From Patescibacteria group bacterium (GTDB taxonomy: Bacteria; Patescibacteriota; Patescibacteriia; Veblenbacterales; UBA10138), in contig JBAZOT010000002.1 in assembly GCA_041648575.1 (NCBI GenBank), positions 34,038 to 98,037 on the forward strand: DNA of 64,000 bases. The letters are read 5' to 3'. The translations under genes and the position numbers were made by a program. The notes beneath the pieces were generated by a model that was not told the origin of the DNA, did not search any database, and saw only the letters and a list, made by a program, of their open reading frames with translations. Below, piece after piece: positions 1,546 to 47,435 of the stretch. The first letter of the stretch is position 1. The number at the start of each line of letters is the position of its first letter.

Positions 1546-2472
1546 ATGACTACTCGTCAAAAACTTGAAATTATACAAAAAATGTTGGCACTTACTCAAA
1601 CCAAGTTAGCCGAACGATTTGGCGTGTCTTTTGTCACCTTTAATAGTTGGTGGACAGAAAAGTCTTCGCCTAGGGCAAAAAAACAAGCAGCCATCGACCA
1701 GTTGTTTTTAGAAGTAACGGGGCAAAAAATAGTTCCTGCTAGTACGCTTGCCGCCAAAAAGCAAGCCTTGCGGCAAAAGTCGTCTAAACATAAAAGTATT
1801 ATTGCCACAATTCTGGCCAACCCCGATATCCGTGATCAATTTATTTTAAAACTTACTTATCATAGTAATAGTATTGAGGGTAGCACTCTAACCGAATTGG
1901 ATACGGCCGCTATTTTGTTTGATAATGCCGCCTTGCCGGATAAAAGTTTAACTGAGCATTTGGAAGCAAAAAATCATCAAACCGCTTTGAATTACTTGTT
2001 TGCTCATATTAGTCAAGCTCAAAAAATTGATGAGAGTTTAATATTAAAGCTTCATAGTATTTTAATGAATGGTATTAGATCAGACGCCGGCTCATATCGT
2101 AACCATGCCGTTAGGATTACTGGTGTTAATTTGCCCACCGCTAATTATTTAAGCGTTCCCAAATTAATAGCGGAGGTTATAAGGCGTGCCGTTTCGTCCA
2201 CTAAAGATATTATTGCCTTATCAGCAGGCGTTCATAGTCATTTTGAACAGATTCATCCTTTTTCCGACGGCAACGGTCGCATGGGGAGATTGCTTTTAAA
2301 TGCTATGTTGCTTGGTTCCAATTTTGCTCCTGCTATTATCAACCAAAACCAAAGACAGCTTTATTATACCTATCTTTATAAAGCGCAAACTCAAAATGAT
2401 TTTAGTCAATTGGAAGATTTTTTTTGTGATGCTGTTATTGATGGTTTTAAGGTTTTGGAACGTCTTGATTAA
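1546..2472 (+). CDS. Fic family protein: N-terminal HTH plus Fic/DOC domain with canonical HPFSDGNGRMGR motif and an intramolecular inhibitory (S/T)xxxE(G/N) motif (SNSIEG)
   Basis: The Fic signature HxFx(D/E)GNGRxxR is present exactly. The SxxxEG inhibitory helix motif lies upstream of the Fic core. The N-terminal 45 aa resemble an XRE-type HTH. Confidence 0.8.
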   Translation: MTTRQKLEIIQKMLALTQTKLAERFGVSFVTFNSWWTEKSSPRAKKQAAIDQLFLEVTGQKIVPASTLAAKKQALRQKSSKHKSIIATILANPDIRDQFILKLTYHSNSIEGSTLTELDTAAILFDNAALPDKSLTEHLEAKNHQTALNYLFAHISQAQKIDESLILKLHSILMNGIRSDAGSYRNHAVRITGVNLPTANYLSVPKLIAEVIRRAVSSTKDIIALSAGVHSHFEQIHPFSDGNGRMGRLLLNAMLLGSNFAPAIINQNQRQLYYTYLYKAQTQNDFSQLEDFFCDAVIDGFKVLERLD

Positions 2473-2565: not shown

Positions 2566-4257
2566 TTATTTTATTAAAACCATTTTTTTTGTTTCGCAGT
2601 AGCTACCAGCAGTCAAGCGGTAAAAATACATACCACTTGGATTATTGCCAGCGTTCCATTCCACTGAGTGCTTACCCTGTTCTTTTGTTTCATTCACTAG
2701 CGTCGCCACTTCCTGCCCCAGCAGATTGTATACTTTGAGTGTTACGAGACTGCCGCGCTCACTGCGTTCGCTCGCAGTGACATTGTTGTCATTGCGAGGC
2801 ATAGCCGAAGCAATCTCATACTTAATCGTTGTCACCGGATTAAACGGATTCGGATAGTTTTGTTCCAACTGAAACGCAATTGGGATCCCGAGCACTGTCG
2901 AGGGGTCTTGCTCACCATCTGGTGGCGGCGGCGGTAATTCGTCTATATCCACGATATTAATTCGTGAGTATGAGGCTTTCGTCAGCAATGGTATGTTTAG
3001 ATACAGTGTGCCTGCCTCGTTCACTTTGATCCAATATCCATTGCCAGGCCTCAGAGTGTCTTCTGGTAAATAACTTCCATTATAGCCAAAGAATTGGCTT
3101 GTTATCATACCAGGATCTACTAATATATCCGCGCAAGCAATTGGTTCAGTCAGCGAACCAATCATATTCCAGCCTTCAGTTACTGAAATGGTGTTATTAG
3201 TAACAGGTTCACCGTTGATAATAACACTTTGGTCTTCACTGAACTTTAACCAGTAGCCAATTCCACATTTAAGCGTGTCAACATCAACATAATTACCATT
3301 GTAAGCATAGGCAGAAGATATAGCAGTGGGAAAGAGAGAATTTAAGGACATATTATCTGCCTGTCTGGCTATCGATATCATATTCCACCCTTTTTTTACG
3401 GGGTAGTATTCTGCGTTTGGCGAATATTCACCAAAATTTATTCCAGCCCAATGCAGTGTATCACCAATCGTAATAGTTGTTTCGGGAGTAGTGGCTATCC
3501 AACCACCGGCTTTAGTTTCTGGTTTTACAGTATATATTCCTCGTGGAACAGCTAGAAGGGCATAGTTACCTAAGGCATTGGTAGTAGTTGAATCTTGATG
3601 CGTACCGTTAGCATCTAAATATATCTTCCAGTTACTCATACCGTTTTCGCCACTATCAATTATGCTGTTTTGATTTGCGTCATTGAATAATACGCCAGAA
3701 ATAGTGCCTTTTTCACCACCATCATAAAATAAGATTTGTGATACTCCTTGTCCACTAGTAAAATGATCAAAATCACCAATGACAGCACCAAGAACTGACC
3801 ATGGCACATAACATATAATTAACGAAATAGAATCGAAATATGCAAGTGTACCATTCCATGGCCCCAGAAAATCTGTTGTTTGCCAACTAGTATCTCCTGC
3901 TATTCCATCAGCACTCAGAGGATAGACTGTAGTGTCCCCATGGTGTAGAGAAAACGAGAATATATAGATAACACCAGGATGACTCTGATAACCTCGTTGG
4001 TCAATATGAATAAATCCATTAAATGGTGTTAAATCTACTCTTCTTCCATATATCACACTATCTGACAATTGATCACCATTTGCTTCAATCCGTATTGCCC
4101 AGCCAGATCCTCTGCTTCCACCTTGGTGAGTATATATAGAGTCATACATAGTTGAAAGAACACGATTCCATCCATCATTATTTTGCGCATAAACAGCAAT
4201 GGTAAACACCATCGCTATTAATATCGCGATTGCAATATATAAATTTTTAAGTTTCAT
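2566..4257 (-). CDS. Secreted protein with signal peptide and T9SS-type (Por_Secre_tail-like) C-terminal sorting domain carrying an in-frame repeat-derived insertion
   Basis: N-terminal hydrophobic signal (MKLKNLYIAIAILIAMVFTIAVYA). The C-terminus reads NYPNPFNPVTTIKYEI...LVTLKVYNLLGQEVATLVNE...GMYFYRLTAG...KKMVLIK, which is typical of a T9SS C-terminal domain. A 21-aa insert (ASAMPRNDNNVTASERSERGS) is encoded by a palindromic repeat. Confidence 0.7.
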   Translation of the reverse strand: MKLKNLYIAIAILIAMVFTIAVYAQNNDGWNRVLSTMYDSIYTHQGGSRGSGWAIRIEANGDQLSDSVIYGRRVDLTPFNGFIHIDQRGYQSHPGVIYIFSFSLHHGDTTVYPLSADGIAGDTSWQTTDFLGPWNGTLAYFDSISLIICYVPWSVLGAVIGDFDHFTSGQGVSQILFYDGGEKGTISGVLFNDANQNSIIDSGENGMSNWKIYLDANGTHQDSTTTNALGNYALLAVPRGIYTVKPETKAGGWIATTPETTITIGDTLHWAGINFGEYSPNAEYYPVKKGWNMISIARQADNMSLNSLFPTAISSAYAYNGNYVDVDTLKCGIGYWLKFSEDQSVIINGEPVTNNTISVTEGWNMIGSLTEPIACADILVDPGMITSQFFGYNGSYLPEDTLRPGNGYWIKVNEAGTLYLNIPLLTKASYSRINIVDIDELPPPPPDGEQDPSTVLGIPIAFQLEQNYPNPFNPVTTIKYEIASAMPRNDNNVTASERSERGSLVTLKVYNLLGQEVATLVNETKEQGKHSVEWNAGNNPSGMYFYRLTAGSYCETKKMVLIK

Positions 4258-7907: not shown

Positions 7908-8054
7908 CCTGCCTGTCACAGGCAGAGACTTAGAATTTAGGAAGAATGTTATGGTGTTGTAGTTGTTATTGATAATCTAGAATTATGAATAGTGAATGAA
8001 GGCAAAAGTTAATTGTTATAATGTTAGAGTAAGAGATAATGACTAATTTCTGAT

Positions 8055-33824: not shown

Positions 33825-34202
33825 ATGGAAGTTTGGGTATTTGGCAATCCAGATTTGGCCCAAGATGCTTTACCAATTAAATTATTGCCTGAATTAAAAA
33901 AACAATTTCCTAAAATAACTTTCGTGGTAAAAGATCCTAATGAGGAGTGGCTGTTACCAAAAAAACTTTATATTATAGATACAGTTCAGGACCTGAATCA
34001 GGTCAAAGTATTTACTTCTTTAGATTATTTTACCAAACAGCCAGCTATTACTATGCATGATTTTGATTTGGGAACGCAATTACAATTTTTAAAAAAACTA
34101 GAACAGTTGCCGCCCTTGGTAATTTTTGGTATTCCCATGAATATCTCGACAGCTGATGTGCTGCGTGAGCTGCTACCTAAGTTGCGTCAATATTTAGTTT
34201 AA
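33825..34202 (+). CDS. Putative hydrogenase maturation endopeptidase (HycI/HoxW-like)
   Basis: 125 aa. N-terminal (V)FGNPDLAQD… and mid-protein MHDFDLG resemble the conserved acidic and His metal-binding positions of hydrogenase maturation proteases. It converges on and overlaps the [NiFe] large-subunit gene. Confidence 0.45.
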   Translation: MEVWVFGNPDLAQDALPIKLLPELKKQFPKITFVVKDPNEEWLLPKKLYIIDTVQDLNQVKVFTSLDYFTKQPAITMHDFDLGTQLQFLKKLEQLPPLVIFGIPMNISTADVLRELLPKLRQYLV

Positions 34203-42150: not shown

Positions 42151-42202
42151 ACGTTAAGTATAACATATTCTTTTATTATTTTTTTATAACAATCTTTTAT
42201 TA

Positions 42203-42470
42203 GGGGTAGAGGGCTCAGAGTTGCGAAGCCCGCCCTCTACCCCTAACAACCCCACACCTGGCACGCTATTTACAAAAATGCCACCATCGCAAGGATCAGT
42301 AAGCGGCACGGAAGGGTGGCGAATGACTGGGCTCGCCCGTGTTTTGGTCCTCTGCGCATGGGGCGAGCCAATGAGCCACCCGAGTACCACCTAATCCGAA
42401 GCGTCTGTGTGGCGACTTTTTGGTTACCTTTTCTTAGAAAAGGTAACAAAGTATTTCTAAAATAAATATA
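42203..42470 (+). ncRNA. Candidate structured non-coding element, copy B (homolog of 18731..19100), in the region upstream of rpsF
   Basis: 5' hairpin ggggtagagggc…gccctctacccc and 3' hairpin gttaccttttc-tta-gaaaaggtaac. The ends are conserved with copy A and the middle is divergent. The 68-aa ORF inside has no protein-like features. Confidence 0.35.
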
Positions 42471-42657
42471 ACTACTTGCTTTATTTTTACCTATTTGCTA
42501 AGATACTAATACTTAAAAGCGCCCAATTTAGAGGCGCGCCATACCCCGACTTATCGGGGTTCCTATCAGTCCTACTTGGGCATAGATAGGAGCTAAACTA
42601 AATATCGGACGCTATTTTGTTTATGACTAACTTAACTTTTTAATCACCAAATTTCAT

Positions 42658-44613: not shown

Positions 44614-45291
44614 ATGTCATTTGTAACTTATTTACTTGTGCTTGGGGCAGTGTCGGCCATTGTCTGGCCTATCTCTTGGTTTATTTTCAGGTGGAAAAAG
44701 ATCTGCGCGCCGGGATTTCGTGGTTTTTTCATGTGGCCTGCAACTTGGTTTGTACTTTATTTGACTAACTGGGCTTGGTTAATTGATGTGCCTGGGGCTA
44801 ATACAATGCTAGTTGAAAACGGAAAAATTGTCCGAGTCTTTCCGGAATCAATTATTATGTGGCAAGGCGCTATTAATATAGATAGCTTGGTTTCCTACGC
44901 TGCTTTTACAAAAGCTATTGAGCTGACCCTACCATTTGATCAATCTCTGGTGTTAAAGGGCCAAGCTATGGACGCAGAGTTGGATACGCTCGCGAAAAAA
45001 GTAACCTGGCGATTATTTTTGACAATCGGCGGCTCGCCTGAAGAAATGCTTAAATTCAGGAAAATTATCGGAATTCCAGGAGATAGTCTGGCAATAGTAG
45101 CGTATATTATGGGCCCTCTAAAGAATGGGATTAACTACGATCGCGAGAAATTGTTAACTGCGTACGATTTATTTTACGAAGAAAATAATGAACTACCTTG
45201 TTATGAACTAGTAAAATCTTATCTGTTACCAACCCTCTCTAACGCTGACATGAAACTTAAAACTGCAACGTTAAAATTTAGTTCATCATAA
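44614..45291 (+). CDS. Hypothetical membrane protein (2 N-terminal TM helices + soluble domain), cargo of the efp islet
   Basis: Strong RBS (aggagtttatcATG). Trp-rich TM segments. No known motif. Confidence 0.4.
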   Translation: MSFVTYLLVLGAVSAIVWPISWFIFRWKKICAPGFRGFFMWPATWFVLYLTNWAWLIDVPGANTMLVENGKIVRVFPESIIMWQGAINIDSLVSYAAFTKAIELTLPFDQSLVLKGQAMDAELDTLAKKVTWRLFLTIGGSPEEMLKFRKIIGIPGDSLAIVAYIMGPLKNGINYDREKLLTAYDLFYEENNELPCYELVKSYLLPTLSNADMKLKTATLKFSSS

Positions 45292-45416
45292 GATAACCAG
45301 CTAATGATAAAACCGACTGTTTAAAAACAGCAGTCGGCTCTTTTATTTTATAAAATTACTTTTCTTCGGCTCTGGCCTGCTTCATTTTTCCCCAAACCGT
45401 TTGTCTTGTTTATCCT

Positions 45417-46505
45417 CTATTTAACCGCGTAATTTTGGGCGGCAAAATTATACTGCGTGATGAATATTTTCTTAAACGGCACAATTGAATTTAATTCATA
45501 AAATACCAGCATCGCTTCACGATAATCATTTTCATCAACACTGCGATACGACAGAGGCGCCGAGCCATGCGCCAATAACAAAGCGTTGGCCATCAGTCGG
45601 CTGGTTCTTTTATTGCCATCCTCAAACGGCTGAATATAACCAATACCCAAAAGAGCAATCAACGCTTTAGCATAGGGCGTTGACATTTGTGATACAGCCG
45701 CGCCAAGATCATTAATTGCTTCAGTAATTTGATAAATATTATCTAACGGTCGGTAAACTGATCCAACTACGCCGACTGGTTTTTCACGCAAACCCAAATC
45801 CACGCTTAAATCTTTAACCAAAATAGCATGCAGTTCTTCTAAATTTGGCTGCGTAATTGTTTTAAATTGCGAAGTATATTCGCGAACAAAATTAAAAGCA
45901 TCTTTATGGTTCAAAATCATTTGTGTCTCTTGTTGTGTCTTACCGAGCGCTGCTTTGTTCTCTAGAATTAACTTTTCCGTATCCAAAAGAGTATAGGTAT
46001 TGCCCTCAATTTTTGATGACTTCCAAGACAGCTCAATAATAAGCCGCTCTAATTCTTTTCTTTGAATAGTCGTTGGTAAATCTCTTGTTCTTTTTTTATA
46101 TTCAGAGGTTGCGCTATCCAAAATTTTCAACTCATCGGTTGTAAAAATATCTGATTTTAAACCAGGCAGTAAATCAAAATTATACCGGTTTAGACCGTAA
46201 CGTTTATCTGGTTCAAGGGAACAATATTTATGGGCATCAACTTCGGCAAATATTCTGCCCAGCGAGCTTATATCATAGCTGGTGGATCGCCCAGAACCTG
46301 CCGCAACCAAAACACCAACACTCGCCATTTCGGACAAAGCTCTTTTTATTGTAACCAAAGAAATATCCTCCCCTTGTTTAACTATCTCGGCATACACGGC
46401 CGATGACTGCATTTTTCCTTTCTCAAGGATAATGGCAGTTATTTTTTGTTGTTTTGTAATTAATTTAATCATTTTCGTATCATTTATATACTTTAATCGT
46501 ATCAT
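45417..46505 (-). CDS. Fic-fold protein with N-terminal winged-helix domain and degenerate active-site motif (QPFEDGNKRTSR; catalytic His replaced by Gln)
   Basis: The Fic core pattern xPFxDGNxR is present with Gln at the His position and Lys in place of the second Gly. Inhibitory-type motif SSKIEGN upstream. N-terminal wHTH (…SLVTIKRALSEM…). Confidence 0.65.
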   Translation of the reverse strand: MIRLKYINDTKMIKLITKQQKITAIILEKGKMQSSAVYAEIVKQGEDISLVTIKRALSEMASVGVLVAAGSGRSTSYDISSLGRIFAEVDAHKYCSLEPDKRYGLNRYNFDLLPGLKSDIFTTDELKILDSATSEYKKRTRDLPTTIQRKELERLIIELSWKSSKIEGNTYTLLDTEKLILENKAALGKTQQETQMILNHKDAFNFVREYTSQFKTITQPNLEELHAILVKDLSVDLGLREKPVGVVGSVYRPLDNIYQITEAINDLGAAVSQMSTPYAKALIALLGIGYIQPFEDGNKRTSRLMANALLLAHGSAPLSYRSVDENDYREAMLVFYELNSIVPFKKIFITQYNFAAQNYAVK

Positions 46506-46559
46506 ATTGATACGATTAAAACAAAGCCTTAAAACTTAACCAAAAACGGAGAAGATATA

Positions 46560-46602: not shown

Positions 46603-46670
46603 ATTAACTAAGATAAAAGCCGCCAGATAGCGGCTTTTTTAATTCTTATGCGAAGCCAATAACAATGCGA

Positions 46671-47435
46671 TTAATTACAAACCACATTTTCTTGCGTTAC
46701 TCCAGGTACAGGGGCCTCGGGCACTAATCCTCCTCCCATAAATATAATGCCGGTCATGCCAAAGCTCTTGAAAAATTTTACACCCGGATGTGCTTGCTCG
46801 CTTTGACTATATGCCCAATCAATCAACCTTTTACTAAAGGCGCAAGTAACTGGCACCCCGTATCCAAGGGGCCCCTTAGGTCCAGACACTAAACATAAAT
46901 CACCTTGTTTACCAATAATTTTAAATTCTATAGCTGGAATTGAAGTAGGTTGAAGTGGTGGAGAGTTACCCTCAACAGGAAAGGGGGGTGCAAATTGAGC
47001 CTTTAGCAAAGCTGGATTACATGCCTGTAAATTATCAGTAAAGCACTCCCACGCTTTTATAGTTTCAACAGCAGCGTCAACTTTATTATTATCCAAAAAT
47101 CCAATAAAACCAGCAGTACCACAATTAATGGTATTTATCTGTGTGATAGCCGGCTGGTTTTGGATATTATTTAACTGGTTTACTGATCCTTGTGTTGTCG
47201 GTGCCGGCCGTAACCAATACCAATATACTGCCCCAGCCATCACCAACACGATAACAACAACTGTGGTAATTATTAATCCCTTATACTTACTGACAGAAGT
47301 GGGGCTATCTGTTTGCATCGCCGCTTTAACATCTGTAGCATCCCAACCTACATTAATCAATGCTGTATTTATTTGATCATCAGAAAGACCATTCTGACGA
47401 GCAGAGGTTATATAATCAATAAGTTTTTGATCCAT
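46671..47435 (-). CDS. Hypothetical membrane-anchored protein with Cys-containing C-terminal domain
   Basis: N-terminal soluble segment, a single TM (LIITTVVVIVLVMAGAVYWYW) and a ~170-aa extracytoplasmic domain. Confidence 0.35.
   Translation of the reverse strand: MDQKLIDYITSARQNGLSDDQINTALINVGWDATDVKAAMQTDSPTSVSKYKGLIITTVVVIVLVMAGAVYWYWLRPAPTTQGSVNQLNNIQNQPAITQINTINCGTAGFIGFLDNNKVDAAVETIKAWECFTDNLQACNPALLKAQFAPPFPVEGNSPPLQPTSIPAIEFKIIGKQGDLCLVSGPKGPLGYGVPVTCAFSKRLIDWAYSQSEQAHPGVKFFKSFGMTGIIFMGGGLVPEAPVPGVTQENVVCN

Follow-up and report, generated by a model that had tools for sequence, protein, structure and literature searches.

A winged-helix Fic protein with a Gln/Lys active site and a conserved candidate operator at its own promoter, widespread in Patescibacteria

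A gene on the minus strand of a 64,000-nucleotide stretch of DNA from a Patescibacteria group bacterium (positions 34,038 to 98,037 of contig JBAZOT010000002.1, assembly GCA_041648575.1; hereafter the window, meaning this whole stretch) encodes a Fic-fold protein in which glutamine stands in the place of the catalytic histidine and lysine in that of the second glycine of the canonical motif. The protein belongs to a large family that keeps both residues, its gene follows a conserved palindrome that overlaps its own predicted promoter, and no partner gene accompanies it from genome to genome. Our best reading, held with moderate confidence, is that the locus is a self-repressing, mobile, single-gene module with the variant Fic domain, referred to here as Fic(Q/K), as its output; this domain would retain a phosphate- and Mg-binding site and would not carry out canonical AMP transfer. 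The features of the protein are as follows, with coordinates of the window and residues numbered along the 362-residue open reading frame (ORF) in which it was first noticed.

45417..46472, minus strand: most likely coding sequence of the winged helix-Fic(Q/K) protein, 351 amino acids plus stop
46266..46457, minus strand: N-terminal winged helix-turn-helix (wHTH), residues 17-80, from the AlphaFold2 (AF2) model, profiles and translation; contains the predicted recognition helix S49-LVTIKRAL
45999..46073, minus strand: predicted inhibitory helix, residues 145-169, ending S163-S-K-I-E167-G-N, of the class II type (S/T)xxxE(G/N)
46002..46019, minus strand: SSKIEG, residues 163-168, checked by translation
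45576..45854, minus strand: Fic core domain PF02661, residues 218-310, from Pfam
45738..45785, minus strand: flap, residues 241-256, EKPVGVVGSVYRPLDN, the hairpin on which Fic enzymes dock their targets, located by the FICD alignment
45597..45632, minus strand: variant Fic motif Q292-P-F-E-D296-G-N298-K299-R300-T-S-R303, translated as QPFEDGNKRTSR

Pfam places residues 218-310 in the Fic/DOC family PF02661 (47.8 bits, E 2.6e-12, the cut-off being 24 bits), and residues 15-79 give a weak FUR-type winged-helix match; matches to FUR/PerR were weak too. The AF2 model, built on a 150-sequence alignment, has a mean predicted local distance difference test score (pLDDT) of 90.6 and a predicted template modelling score of 0.90. 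It opens with a winged helix (helices 17-29, 34-43 and 50-62, strands 66-69 and 76-79), continues with linker helices and a long helix, 145-166, that ends in SSKIEG, and closes with the Fic core. Top Foldseek matches in the PDB were FICD, BT_2513, C. elegans Fic-1, CccR (7XUX) and SoFic, and the superposition on FICD covered 243 columns, the root-mean-square deviation being 2.6 Å (E 1e-9). The family profile likewise matched FICD in the PDB (E 8.5e-22), while its N-terminal part matched the winged helices of AspA, AdcR/ZitR and BlaI; no Doc entry was among the PDB matches of this profile. A phmmer search of PDB sequences aligned QPFEDGNKRTSR column-for-column on HPFIDGNGRTSR of FICD, and laid SSKIEGN on TVAIEGN, the FICD helix that carries the inhibitory Glu234, so that S163-SKI-E167-G168 of helix 145-166 lies opposite T-VAI-E234-G. 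Class II Fic proteins, in the classification attributed to Engel et al. 2012, are reportedly those with an intramolecular N-terminal inhibitory helix. Since the protein is closest by fold and sequence to FICD and to the canonical HTH-Fic at 1546..2472 and similarity to Doc is weak, alignment and model identify the protein as a class II Fic fused to an N-terminal wHTH rather than as a Doc.

These results bear out most of what the original prediction, made from the sequence alone, had said of the protein itself: a Fic fold with Gln for the catalytic His, QPFEDGNKRTSR replacing HxFx(D/E)GNGRxxR; Lys for the second Gly; an inhibitory SxxxEG motif; and an N-terminal winged helix. The protein holds a single Fic motif, which aligns unambiguously, and neither a second, His-containing motif elsewhere in it nor an affiliation to a non-Fic family was found. 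A motif-only search of the PDB for a Q/K-type structure matched only His/Gly Fic proteins. The canonical Fic that the same prediction had pointed to for comparison, at 1546..2472 on the plus strand of the window, is indeed present with the motif HPFSDGNGRMGR; the two proteins share 33% identity over 171 residues, with Q opposite H and K opposite G.

Residue roles in the active site were assigned through the FICD alignment, with the roles of the FICD residues as given by Bunney 2014 (PMC4342408). On this basis the Mg2+ residue D367 of FICD is kept as D296, the loop scaffold N369 as N298, the motif arginine R371 as R300, and R374, which contacts ribose and the gamma-phosphate, as R303; the loop anchor F365 is kept as F294, and the inhibitory Glu E234, which competes with R374, as E167. 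Changed are the general base H363 (Q292), the anion-hole residue G370 (K299), the adenosine contact N407 (Y336, invariant in the family) and the adenosine-pocket residues V360 (G/S289) and L403 (M332). The protein thus has the motif Asp, Asn and both Arg of canonical AMPylators, all invariant in the family (D296, N298, R300 and R303), and has neither their catalytic His nor their second Gly. The flap, VG[IV]xG[ST]xYxPLDN, is conserved, with V247 opposite FICD V316 and at least 90% conservation at V244, G245, G248, Y251, P253, L254, D255 and N256. Because the general-base His, the anion-hole Gly and the adenosine-contacting Asn are all replaced, the alignment indicates that the domain cannot act as a canonical AMP-transferase. 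The new residues are invariant beside an intact phosphate/Mg site, so the site looks like a re-tooled one rather than a drifting dead one, and it appears to be still under active-site-grade selection.

A weak but genuine AMP-transferase or de-AMPylase, with Gln and the inhibitory Glu in place of His, is nevertheless conceivable. Such an enzyme would be consistent with the retention of D, N, R, R and the inhibitory Glu, with the residual activity that Khater & Mohanty (PMC4454073) argue for from the IbpA His-to-Ala and ADH His-to-Gln mutants, and with the support that Glu lends to de-AMPylation in FICD, EfFic and SoFic. However, the anion-hole Gly is now a Lys, which in Doc is reported to block the canonical ATP pose, the equivalents of Asn407 and Val360 are an invariant Tyr and a Gly/Ser, and none of 361 motif-bearing family members has reverted to His. 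We therefore regard this enzyme as improbable.

The invariance of the site holds across a very large family, put at more than 7,700 clusters at 90% identity. A word-indexed search gave more than 7,900 clusters at this identity, and when representatives clustered at 50% identity were searched exhaustively, 3,331 matches had E<=1e-3, 316 of them E<=1e-30. All of the closest 120 relatives (69-100% identity) carry QPFxDGNKRxxR, and they come from Patescibacteria metagenome-assembled genomes (MAGs) wherever the source names an organism. Among the 150 best 50%-identity cluster representatives the Q…K motif occurs in 109; the others are mostly truncated fragments or relatives of 385-492 amino acids with QPFxD[VL]NKRxxR, together with a few degenerate motifs. 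Overall, 390 proteins were retrieved, and in the 361 relatives that bear the motif Q…K was found 353 times and His not once. An alignment of 74 diverse members with a mean column identity of 37% leaves W161, E167, G168, L179, H226, R240 and P253 invariant, together with Q292, D296, G297, N298, K299, R300 and R303. As Q…K is kept across so large and diverse a family, with no His member, neither chance nor decay explains the variant, and by this comparison the gene is not a decayed copy.

A winged helix at the N-terminus occurs throughout the retrieved family, and no informative domain fusions were found in the longer members examined. The family is commonest in Patescibacteria and also occurs in Bacteroidota, Pseudomonadota, Gastranaerophilaceae and one Ruminococcus gnavus assembly, and plasmids carry relatives in cultured Bacteroides finegoldii, Sulfitobacter, Rhizobium, Cereibacter and Comamonas. 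Carriage by phages was considered and rejected: only about 11 close relatives were found in 2.9 million viral contigs, and the matches in the phage database were HYPE-like proteins of 26-31% identity. A PHROG search returned generic Fic matches only.

The listed start of the gene is probably wrong. The ORF 45417..46505 on the minus strand is present with 362 residues, as first listed, and its frame and stop stand, but the true start is most likely ATG 46472 (M12 of that ORF). Homologues are mostly 351 amino acids long, their first residue corresponding to M12; the AF2 model of the longer version has pLDDT values below 50 for residues 1-12; and the listed ATG 46505, which precedes the predicted -10 element, falls within the spacer of the conserved palindrome. 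Residues 1-11 seemed to be matched by tblastn in other loci, but these matches fall on the palindrome (positions 7991-8009 of those loci) and so reflect conservation of DNA rather than of coding sequence. The features upstream of the revised start are as follows.

46473..46505, minus strand: 11-codon N-terminal extension, probably spurious, corresponding to translated operator and leader, with ATG 46505 in the palindrome spacer
46492..46520, no strand: palindrome of perfect 13+13 base pairs with a 3-nucleotide spacer, a candidate operator for a wHTH dimer
46475..46482, minus strand: third half-site TGATACGA, 22 nucleotides downstream of the right arm and 2 nucleotides before the ATG
46519..46524, minus strand: -35-like hexamer TTGTTT, weak; TTGACA, TTGACG or TTGCC in homologues
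46496..46504, minus strand: extended -10-like TGaTACGAT, identical to the right arm of the palindrome, with a predicted promoter function

The palindrome, TTTAATCGTATCA-ATA-TGATACGATTAAA, lies directly upstream of ATG 46472, was matched in none of 200 shuffles and has no second copy within the window. It overlaps the predicted -35/extended -10 promoter of its own gene: its right arm reads TGnTACGAT, an extended -10 element, exactly 17 nucleotides after the -35-like hexamer. A promoter scan of two homologous loci (L017 and L014) returned the same layout, TTGACA or TTGACG, 17 nucleotides, TG-n-TACGAT. The core ATCGTATCA-N3-TGATACGAT recurs about 20-25 nucleotides upstream of the homologous gene in 33 aligned loci from many Patescibacteria lineages. 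The consensus built from 131 unique promoters reads TTGc-N2-TAATCGTATCA-N3-TGATACGATTA-N~11-AAATGATACGA-N2-3-ATG; AAATGATACGA is its third half-site, and about 70 of the 131 have a TTG at position -9, counted from the palindrome core. When up to two mismatches were allowed in the 1.14 Mb of fetched loci, every palindrome lay at a family-gene promoter except one weak 2-mismatch match. In an exact-pattern scan of metagenomes the palindrome abutted a family gene in 86 of 120 independent stretches, at a median distance of 24 nucleotides; beyond these 86, one further palindrome (L207) opens into a family winged-helix ORF that is cut by the contig end.

The operator varies between loci, together with the recognition helix. 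Variant operators (TCCTATCA/TGATAGGA, TTGTATCA/TGATACAA, TTCGTGCCA/TGGCACGAA and AGCTCA/TGAGCT) change symmetrically in all half-sites of a locus, the third half-site changes along with the palindrome arms in the variant loci L035, L041, L045 and L055, and in some loci an additional outer half-site, the fourth, precedes the -35 element. Recognition helices of the form xL[VIL]T[VIT][KR]R are paired with TCGTATCA in 31 of 34 cases, and the AGCTCA half-site is confined to the AT[LVIM][KR]R helix class. The suggestion in the original prediction that such a variant could be a DNA-binding regulator has thus gained strong comparative support from a conserved palindrome that overlaps the gene's own promoter, and these sequence patterns make it very probable that the wHTH binds the palindrome and represses its own gene.

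The same repeat might instead act in RNA, as a hairpin or attenuator in the 5' leader in which the left arm pairs alternatively with the right arm or with the third half-site. The stem is perfect and shows compensatory changes, and the left arm could find a partner in the third copy. However, with the -35 and extended -10 elements beside or across the repeat, most of the palindrome would stay untranscribed; in some loci the fourth half-site even lies upstream of the -35 element, no U-tract follows the stem, and the type of half-site tracks the recognition helix of the adjacent winged helix. Binding by the protein also has a precedent in CccR (PMC9755527) and SoFic (bioRxiv 10.64898/2026.07.09.737422), and we give the RNA explanation little credence.

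Both of these precedents are themselves Fic proteins of similar design. CccR of Yersinia pseudotuberculosis (7XUX; PMC9755527) represses its own promoter via palindromes at the -35/-10 region and is detectably related to Fic(Q/K) in sequence and fold; like it, CccR combines in one protein a class II Fic domain, whose inhibitory helix has the motif S-x-x-x-E-G, and a helix-turn-helix (HTH) domain, and it forms a single-gene module. It differs in its canonical motif, H192PFGNGNGRTVR203, with His-dependent AMPylation of a target (the H192A mutant is non-toxic; PMC9755527), where the present family has the Q/K motif, and in being an effector secreted by a type VI secretion system with a C-terminal HTH, whereas the wHTH is N-terminal here and no secretion context was seen. 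SoFic (Shewanella oneidensis SO_4266, PDB 3EQX/3ZCN; a single-gene defence model in PADLOC) is also a stand-alone class II Fic with a winged helix, and its dimer binds its own promoter and AMPylates and de-AMPylates EF-Tu (bioRxiv 10.64898/2026.07.09.737422); its motif has the canonical His and Gly, and its winged helix is C-terminal. AMPylation of a target such as FtsZ or EF-Tu in modules of the CccR/SoFic type depends on the His, which is absent here. Human FICD/HYPE is the best match in sequence and structure, with the inhibitory helix, flap, core helices and loop Asp/Asn/Arg/Arg all aligned, but where the present family has a winged helix it carries a tetratricopeptide-repeat domain and a membrane anchor. 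The SoFic and PDC-S04 models of PADLOC match Fic(Q/K) with 60 bits (E 5e-17) and 52 bits, respectively, a weak and generic Fic similarity.

Operators of unusual layout were seen at two relatives. In a Gastranaerophilaceae MAG (L042, 7673..7968), the family gene is preceded by three palindromes in a row, of the TCGTATCA/TTGTATCA type, which stand in place of one palindrome with half-sites. On the Comamonas endophytica plasmid NZ_CP106883.1 (L090), TAATCTTGTCAT direct repeats and the palindrome ATCTTATCAGCTGACAAGAT lie upstream of position 3989, in front of a gene for a proteobacterial relative of 457 amino acids with the motif LQPFADGNKRTSR and an extra C-terminal region of about 90 amino acids; the gene is flanked by a restriction endonuclease gene and integrase genes. 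The ATCTTGTCA repeats of this homologue are analogous to the half-sites in the window, and with the palindrome they suggest that the operator logic extends to cultivable bacteria.

Some palindromes in the metagenome scan were found away from an intact family gene. Orphan palindromes with the full promoter architecture precede other genes of the conflict type, which encode two Bro-N proteins (L091 and L117), an AbiEii toxin (L155), an MNT nucleotidyltransferase (L197), a DUF6155 protein (L185) and, in L110, a RhuM protein whose Doc-type Fic domain has the motif HPFNDGNKR. Either the Fic(Q) repressor controls these genes as a trans-regulon, or the orphans may be promoter cassettes that remained when the gene was replaced. 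In five loci (L115, L155, L209, L124 and L200) what follows the full palindrome and its third half-site is a Fic(Q) fragment, or sequence that diverges right after the start codon. Such operator "fossils" suggest that the gene has been lost or truncated repeatedly while its operator stayed in place.

The unit that is shared between genomes is small. Compared with 30-odd loci that have other neighbours, DNA similarity to the window spans only the stretch from the palindrome (~46518) to the stop codon (~45417-45430); a near-identical relative, L004, is the sole locus syntenic beyond it. Proteins of 70-78% identity occur in Wildermuthbacteria, Andersenbacteria, Saccharibacteria, Paceibacterota and other lineages, and because such similar copies sit in several Patescibacteria lineages and in unlike contexts, we infer that the 1.1-kb unit has spread horizontally. 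When all ORFs of 84 loci were clustered, no conserved partner gene emerged: the top neighbour cluster (ABC-F) occurs in 7 loci, and AbiEii, epimerase and glycosyltransferase neighbours in at most 5 of the 84 each. About 130 immediate neighbours inspected by eye were housekeeping genes mixed with mobile or defence-type genes. In the window itself, the transcription unit is delimited on either side by a predicted hairpin.

45313..45337, no strand: terminator-like hairpin between the Fic gene and the membrane-protein gene, which is convergent with it
46615..46638, no strand: terminator-like hairpin of the upstream gene 46671..47435, separating the Fic transcription unit from that gene

Two contextual claims of the original prediction do not fit these data. 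It had described the gene as the cargo of an efp islet; the G+C content is flat across the region (0.33-0.42), without compositional anomaly, which led us to reject an islet of foreign DNA, and in other genomes the gene stands in unrelated contexts. It had also proposed the flanking membrane protein as an antitoxin-like or target partner, yet that gene, which lies downstream, is convergent with the Fic gene with a terminator-like hairpin between them, and no neighbour of any kind recurs in more than 7 of the 84 loci. As no neighbouring gene is conserved, neither idea is supported.

The lysine of the motif invites comparison with Doc of phage P1 (Phd-Doc), since Gly-to-Lys at K299 is a Doc-type substitution and both have Lys at motif position 8 (GNKR/ANKR). 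In Doc, with the motif HxFx(D/N)(A/G)NKR, this Lys forces an inverted ATP pose and makes the enzyme a kinase of EF-Tu (PMC4177925). Doc differs from the present protein in keeping the essential His, mutation of which renders it non-toxic (Kinch 2009), where Fic(Q/K) has Gln; in having neither a final Arg nor an inhibitory helix, both the final Arg and the inhibitory Glu being kept in the Fic(Q/K) family; in its six-helix core of about 126 amino acids, against 351 amino acids with a full class II core; and in its need for a separate Phd antitoxin, where no conserved neighbour was found here. The only description of the motif variant found in our literature search is an in-silico survey of Fic/Doc proteins by Khater & Mohanty 2015 (Sci Rep 5:10804, PMC4454073), in which the 45 sequences of "clade D2", with the motif Qx[F/Y]x[D/E][G/V]NKR, are presented as bacterial, "usually single-domain" and a sub-clade of Doc, and their function is only speculated upon. 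The motif is the same (QPFEDGNKR here and QPFxD[VL]NKR in longer proteobacterial relatives) and both groups are bacterial. The two pictures differ in that a winged helix and a class II inhibitory helix occur throughout the family described here, in that this family is far closer to FICD-type Fic than nested in Doc, and in that it comprises thousands of clusters; the promoter-operator is absent from the 2015 description. The motif variant has therefore been in the literature since 2015, and what is new is the size of the family, its correct classification and its conserved self-operator.

A two-gene toxin-antitoxin pair, with this protein as its Doc-type kinase toxin and the product of 44614..45291 or 46671..47435 as antitoxin or target, would agree with the Doc-like GNKR sub-motif and with the placement in Doc clade D2 by Khater & Mohanty. 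This explanation, however, is largely refuted by the lack of any conserved neighbour, and terminator-like hairpins isolate both flanking genes, one of which is convergent. An approximate comparison by hhalign with P1 Doc gave a probability of only 26%, and no Doc was among the PDB profile matches, against 8.5e-22 for FICD. The full class II core with its own inhibitory helix and the invariant final Arg, absent in Doc proteins, point the same way, and we consider such a pair very unlikely.

We propose that the locus is a compact, self-contained 1.1-kb module made up of a promoter-operator and one gene. The wHTH would bind the palindrome, most likely as a dimer, with extra subunits possibly on the auxiliary half-sites; as the palindrome covers the spacer and the extended -10 element, the bound protein would occlude RNA polymerase, and such negative autoregulation would keep the amount of protein low and buffered. 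Since no regulatory target other than its own gene is detectable, the Fic(Q/K) domain must be the functional output. Its active-site loop would be latched by an intramolecular Glu167-Arg303 contact of the inhibitory helix, and the domain would bind a phosphate-bearing ligand such as a nucleotide in a non-canonical, possibly Doc-like inverted pose, and would act on a conserved target, of the cell or of an invader, that docks on the conserved flap. As to the nature of the output, catalysis with His-independent chemistry is a tentative proposal, and action through ligand-dependent binding or sensing is one we also advance with reserve. By analogy, the protein would be a latent effector comparable to CccR and SoFic, which are fused toxin-antitoxin, or single-gene HTH-Fic, proteins.

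Several points weigh against this reading. The -35 hexamer of the window's own promoter, TTGTTT, is weak and falls below the threshold of the promoter scan, and the covariation of operator and recognition helix follows clades, which makes it supportive and not phylogenetically independent proof. A minority of palindromes lie upstream of other genes, which leaves room for a trans regulon. Both the Glu167-Arg303 latch and the geometry of the pocket are deduced from the alignment, and our literature search found no experimental work on a Gln-type Fic protein. Above all, every characterised Fic/Doc enzyme requires its catalytic His (CccR, PMC9755527; Doc, Kinch 2009), so that a non-catalytic role is entirely possible.

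Such a role would be that of a pure pseudo-enzyme transcription factor, in which the Fic(Q/K) domain senses a ligand or oligomerises and thereby tunes DNA binding by the winged helix, with a trans regulon, for instance of other conflict-type genes, in addition to its own gene. The loss of the general base and the occurrence of the same palindrome and promoter upstream of several non-Fic genes in some metagenome contigs are in keeping with it, and non-catalytic Fic domains exist, an example being BepC (PMC7842960). A trans regulon is at odds with the lack of a second site in the 64-kb window and with the single weak 2-mismatch match away from family genes in 1.14 Mb of flanks, and several orphan palindromes adjoin Fic(Q) fragments or contig ends and so look like remnants. 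The invariance of Q, K and the Mg/phosphate residues and the conserved flap are likewise more than a sensor usually needs. We consider this regulator rather unlikely, though it is the main rival of our reading.

Another extension, and one that we would call doubtful, is that the domain is a neo-functionalised, His-independent enzyme and the module a widespread single-gene addiction or defence element that spreads with its own operator. The nucleotide could then sit inverted, as in Doc, and be transferred to a phosphate, a carboxylate or a nucleic-acid end, none of which needs deprotonation; or the conserved Glu could drive hydrolysis. If this holds, the module would be especially common in Patescibacteria.

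A few further observations concern the surroundings of the genes discussed. The other Fic protein of the window (1546..2472, plus strand) is a class II Fic with an inhibitory SNSIEG and an N-terminal XRE-type HTH (weak RstR/DicA-like matches), and it matches the PADLOC candidate defence family PDC-S04 with 146 bits (E 2.8e-43); the window thus holds two different HTH-Fic single-gene modules. In three loci (L005, L006 and L007) the Fic(Q) gene adjoins PilM/FtsA-like type IV pilus assembly genes, an arrangement that does not recur consistently elsewhere; these represent two distinct homologues, P0031 and P0046, as L006 and L007 encode the same protein, and an AbiEii gene lies two genes upstream in L005. 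Scans of the region with Rfam and for tRNAs gave no match. Between the UPF0020 methyltransferase gene and rpsF of the window, a 507-nucleotide stretch (42151..42657) is free of ORFs and folds far more stably than shuffled sequences (z -8.4 on the plus strand and -6.5 on the minus strand). It contains a GC-rich insert of about 230 nucleotides (~42190..42420) that is absent from the syntenic locus L004, and it has no Rfam, tRNA or transfer-messenger RNA match. A structured RNA of unknown kind and a small mobile insertion are both possible identities.

The operator offers a testable handle on the family, as a defined 29-base-pair site with predictable specificity variants, and the plasmid-borne relatives in cultivable Bacteroides, Sulfitobacter, Rhizobium and Comamonas make genetics and biochemistry feasible without culture of the Candidate Phyla Radiation (CPR). 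To our knowledge, the regulation and conflict systems of Patescibacteria (CPR) are almost unstudied, and this family is among the commoner stand-alone genes of these bacteria. Fic enzymes are defined by their catalytic His; a large, conserved family that has Gln in its place, together with a Doc-type Lys, points either to a Fic chemistry that has yet to be explored or to pseudo-Fic regulators of a new, nucleotide-sensing class.

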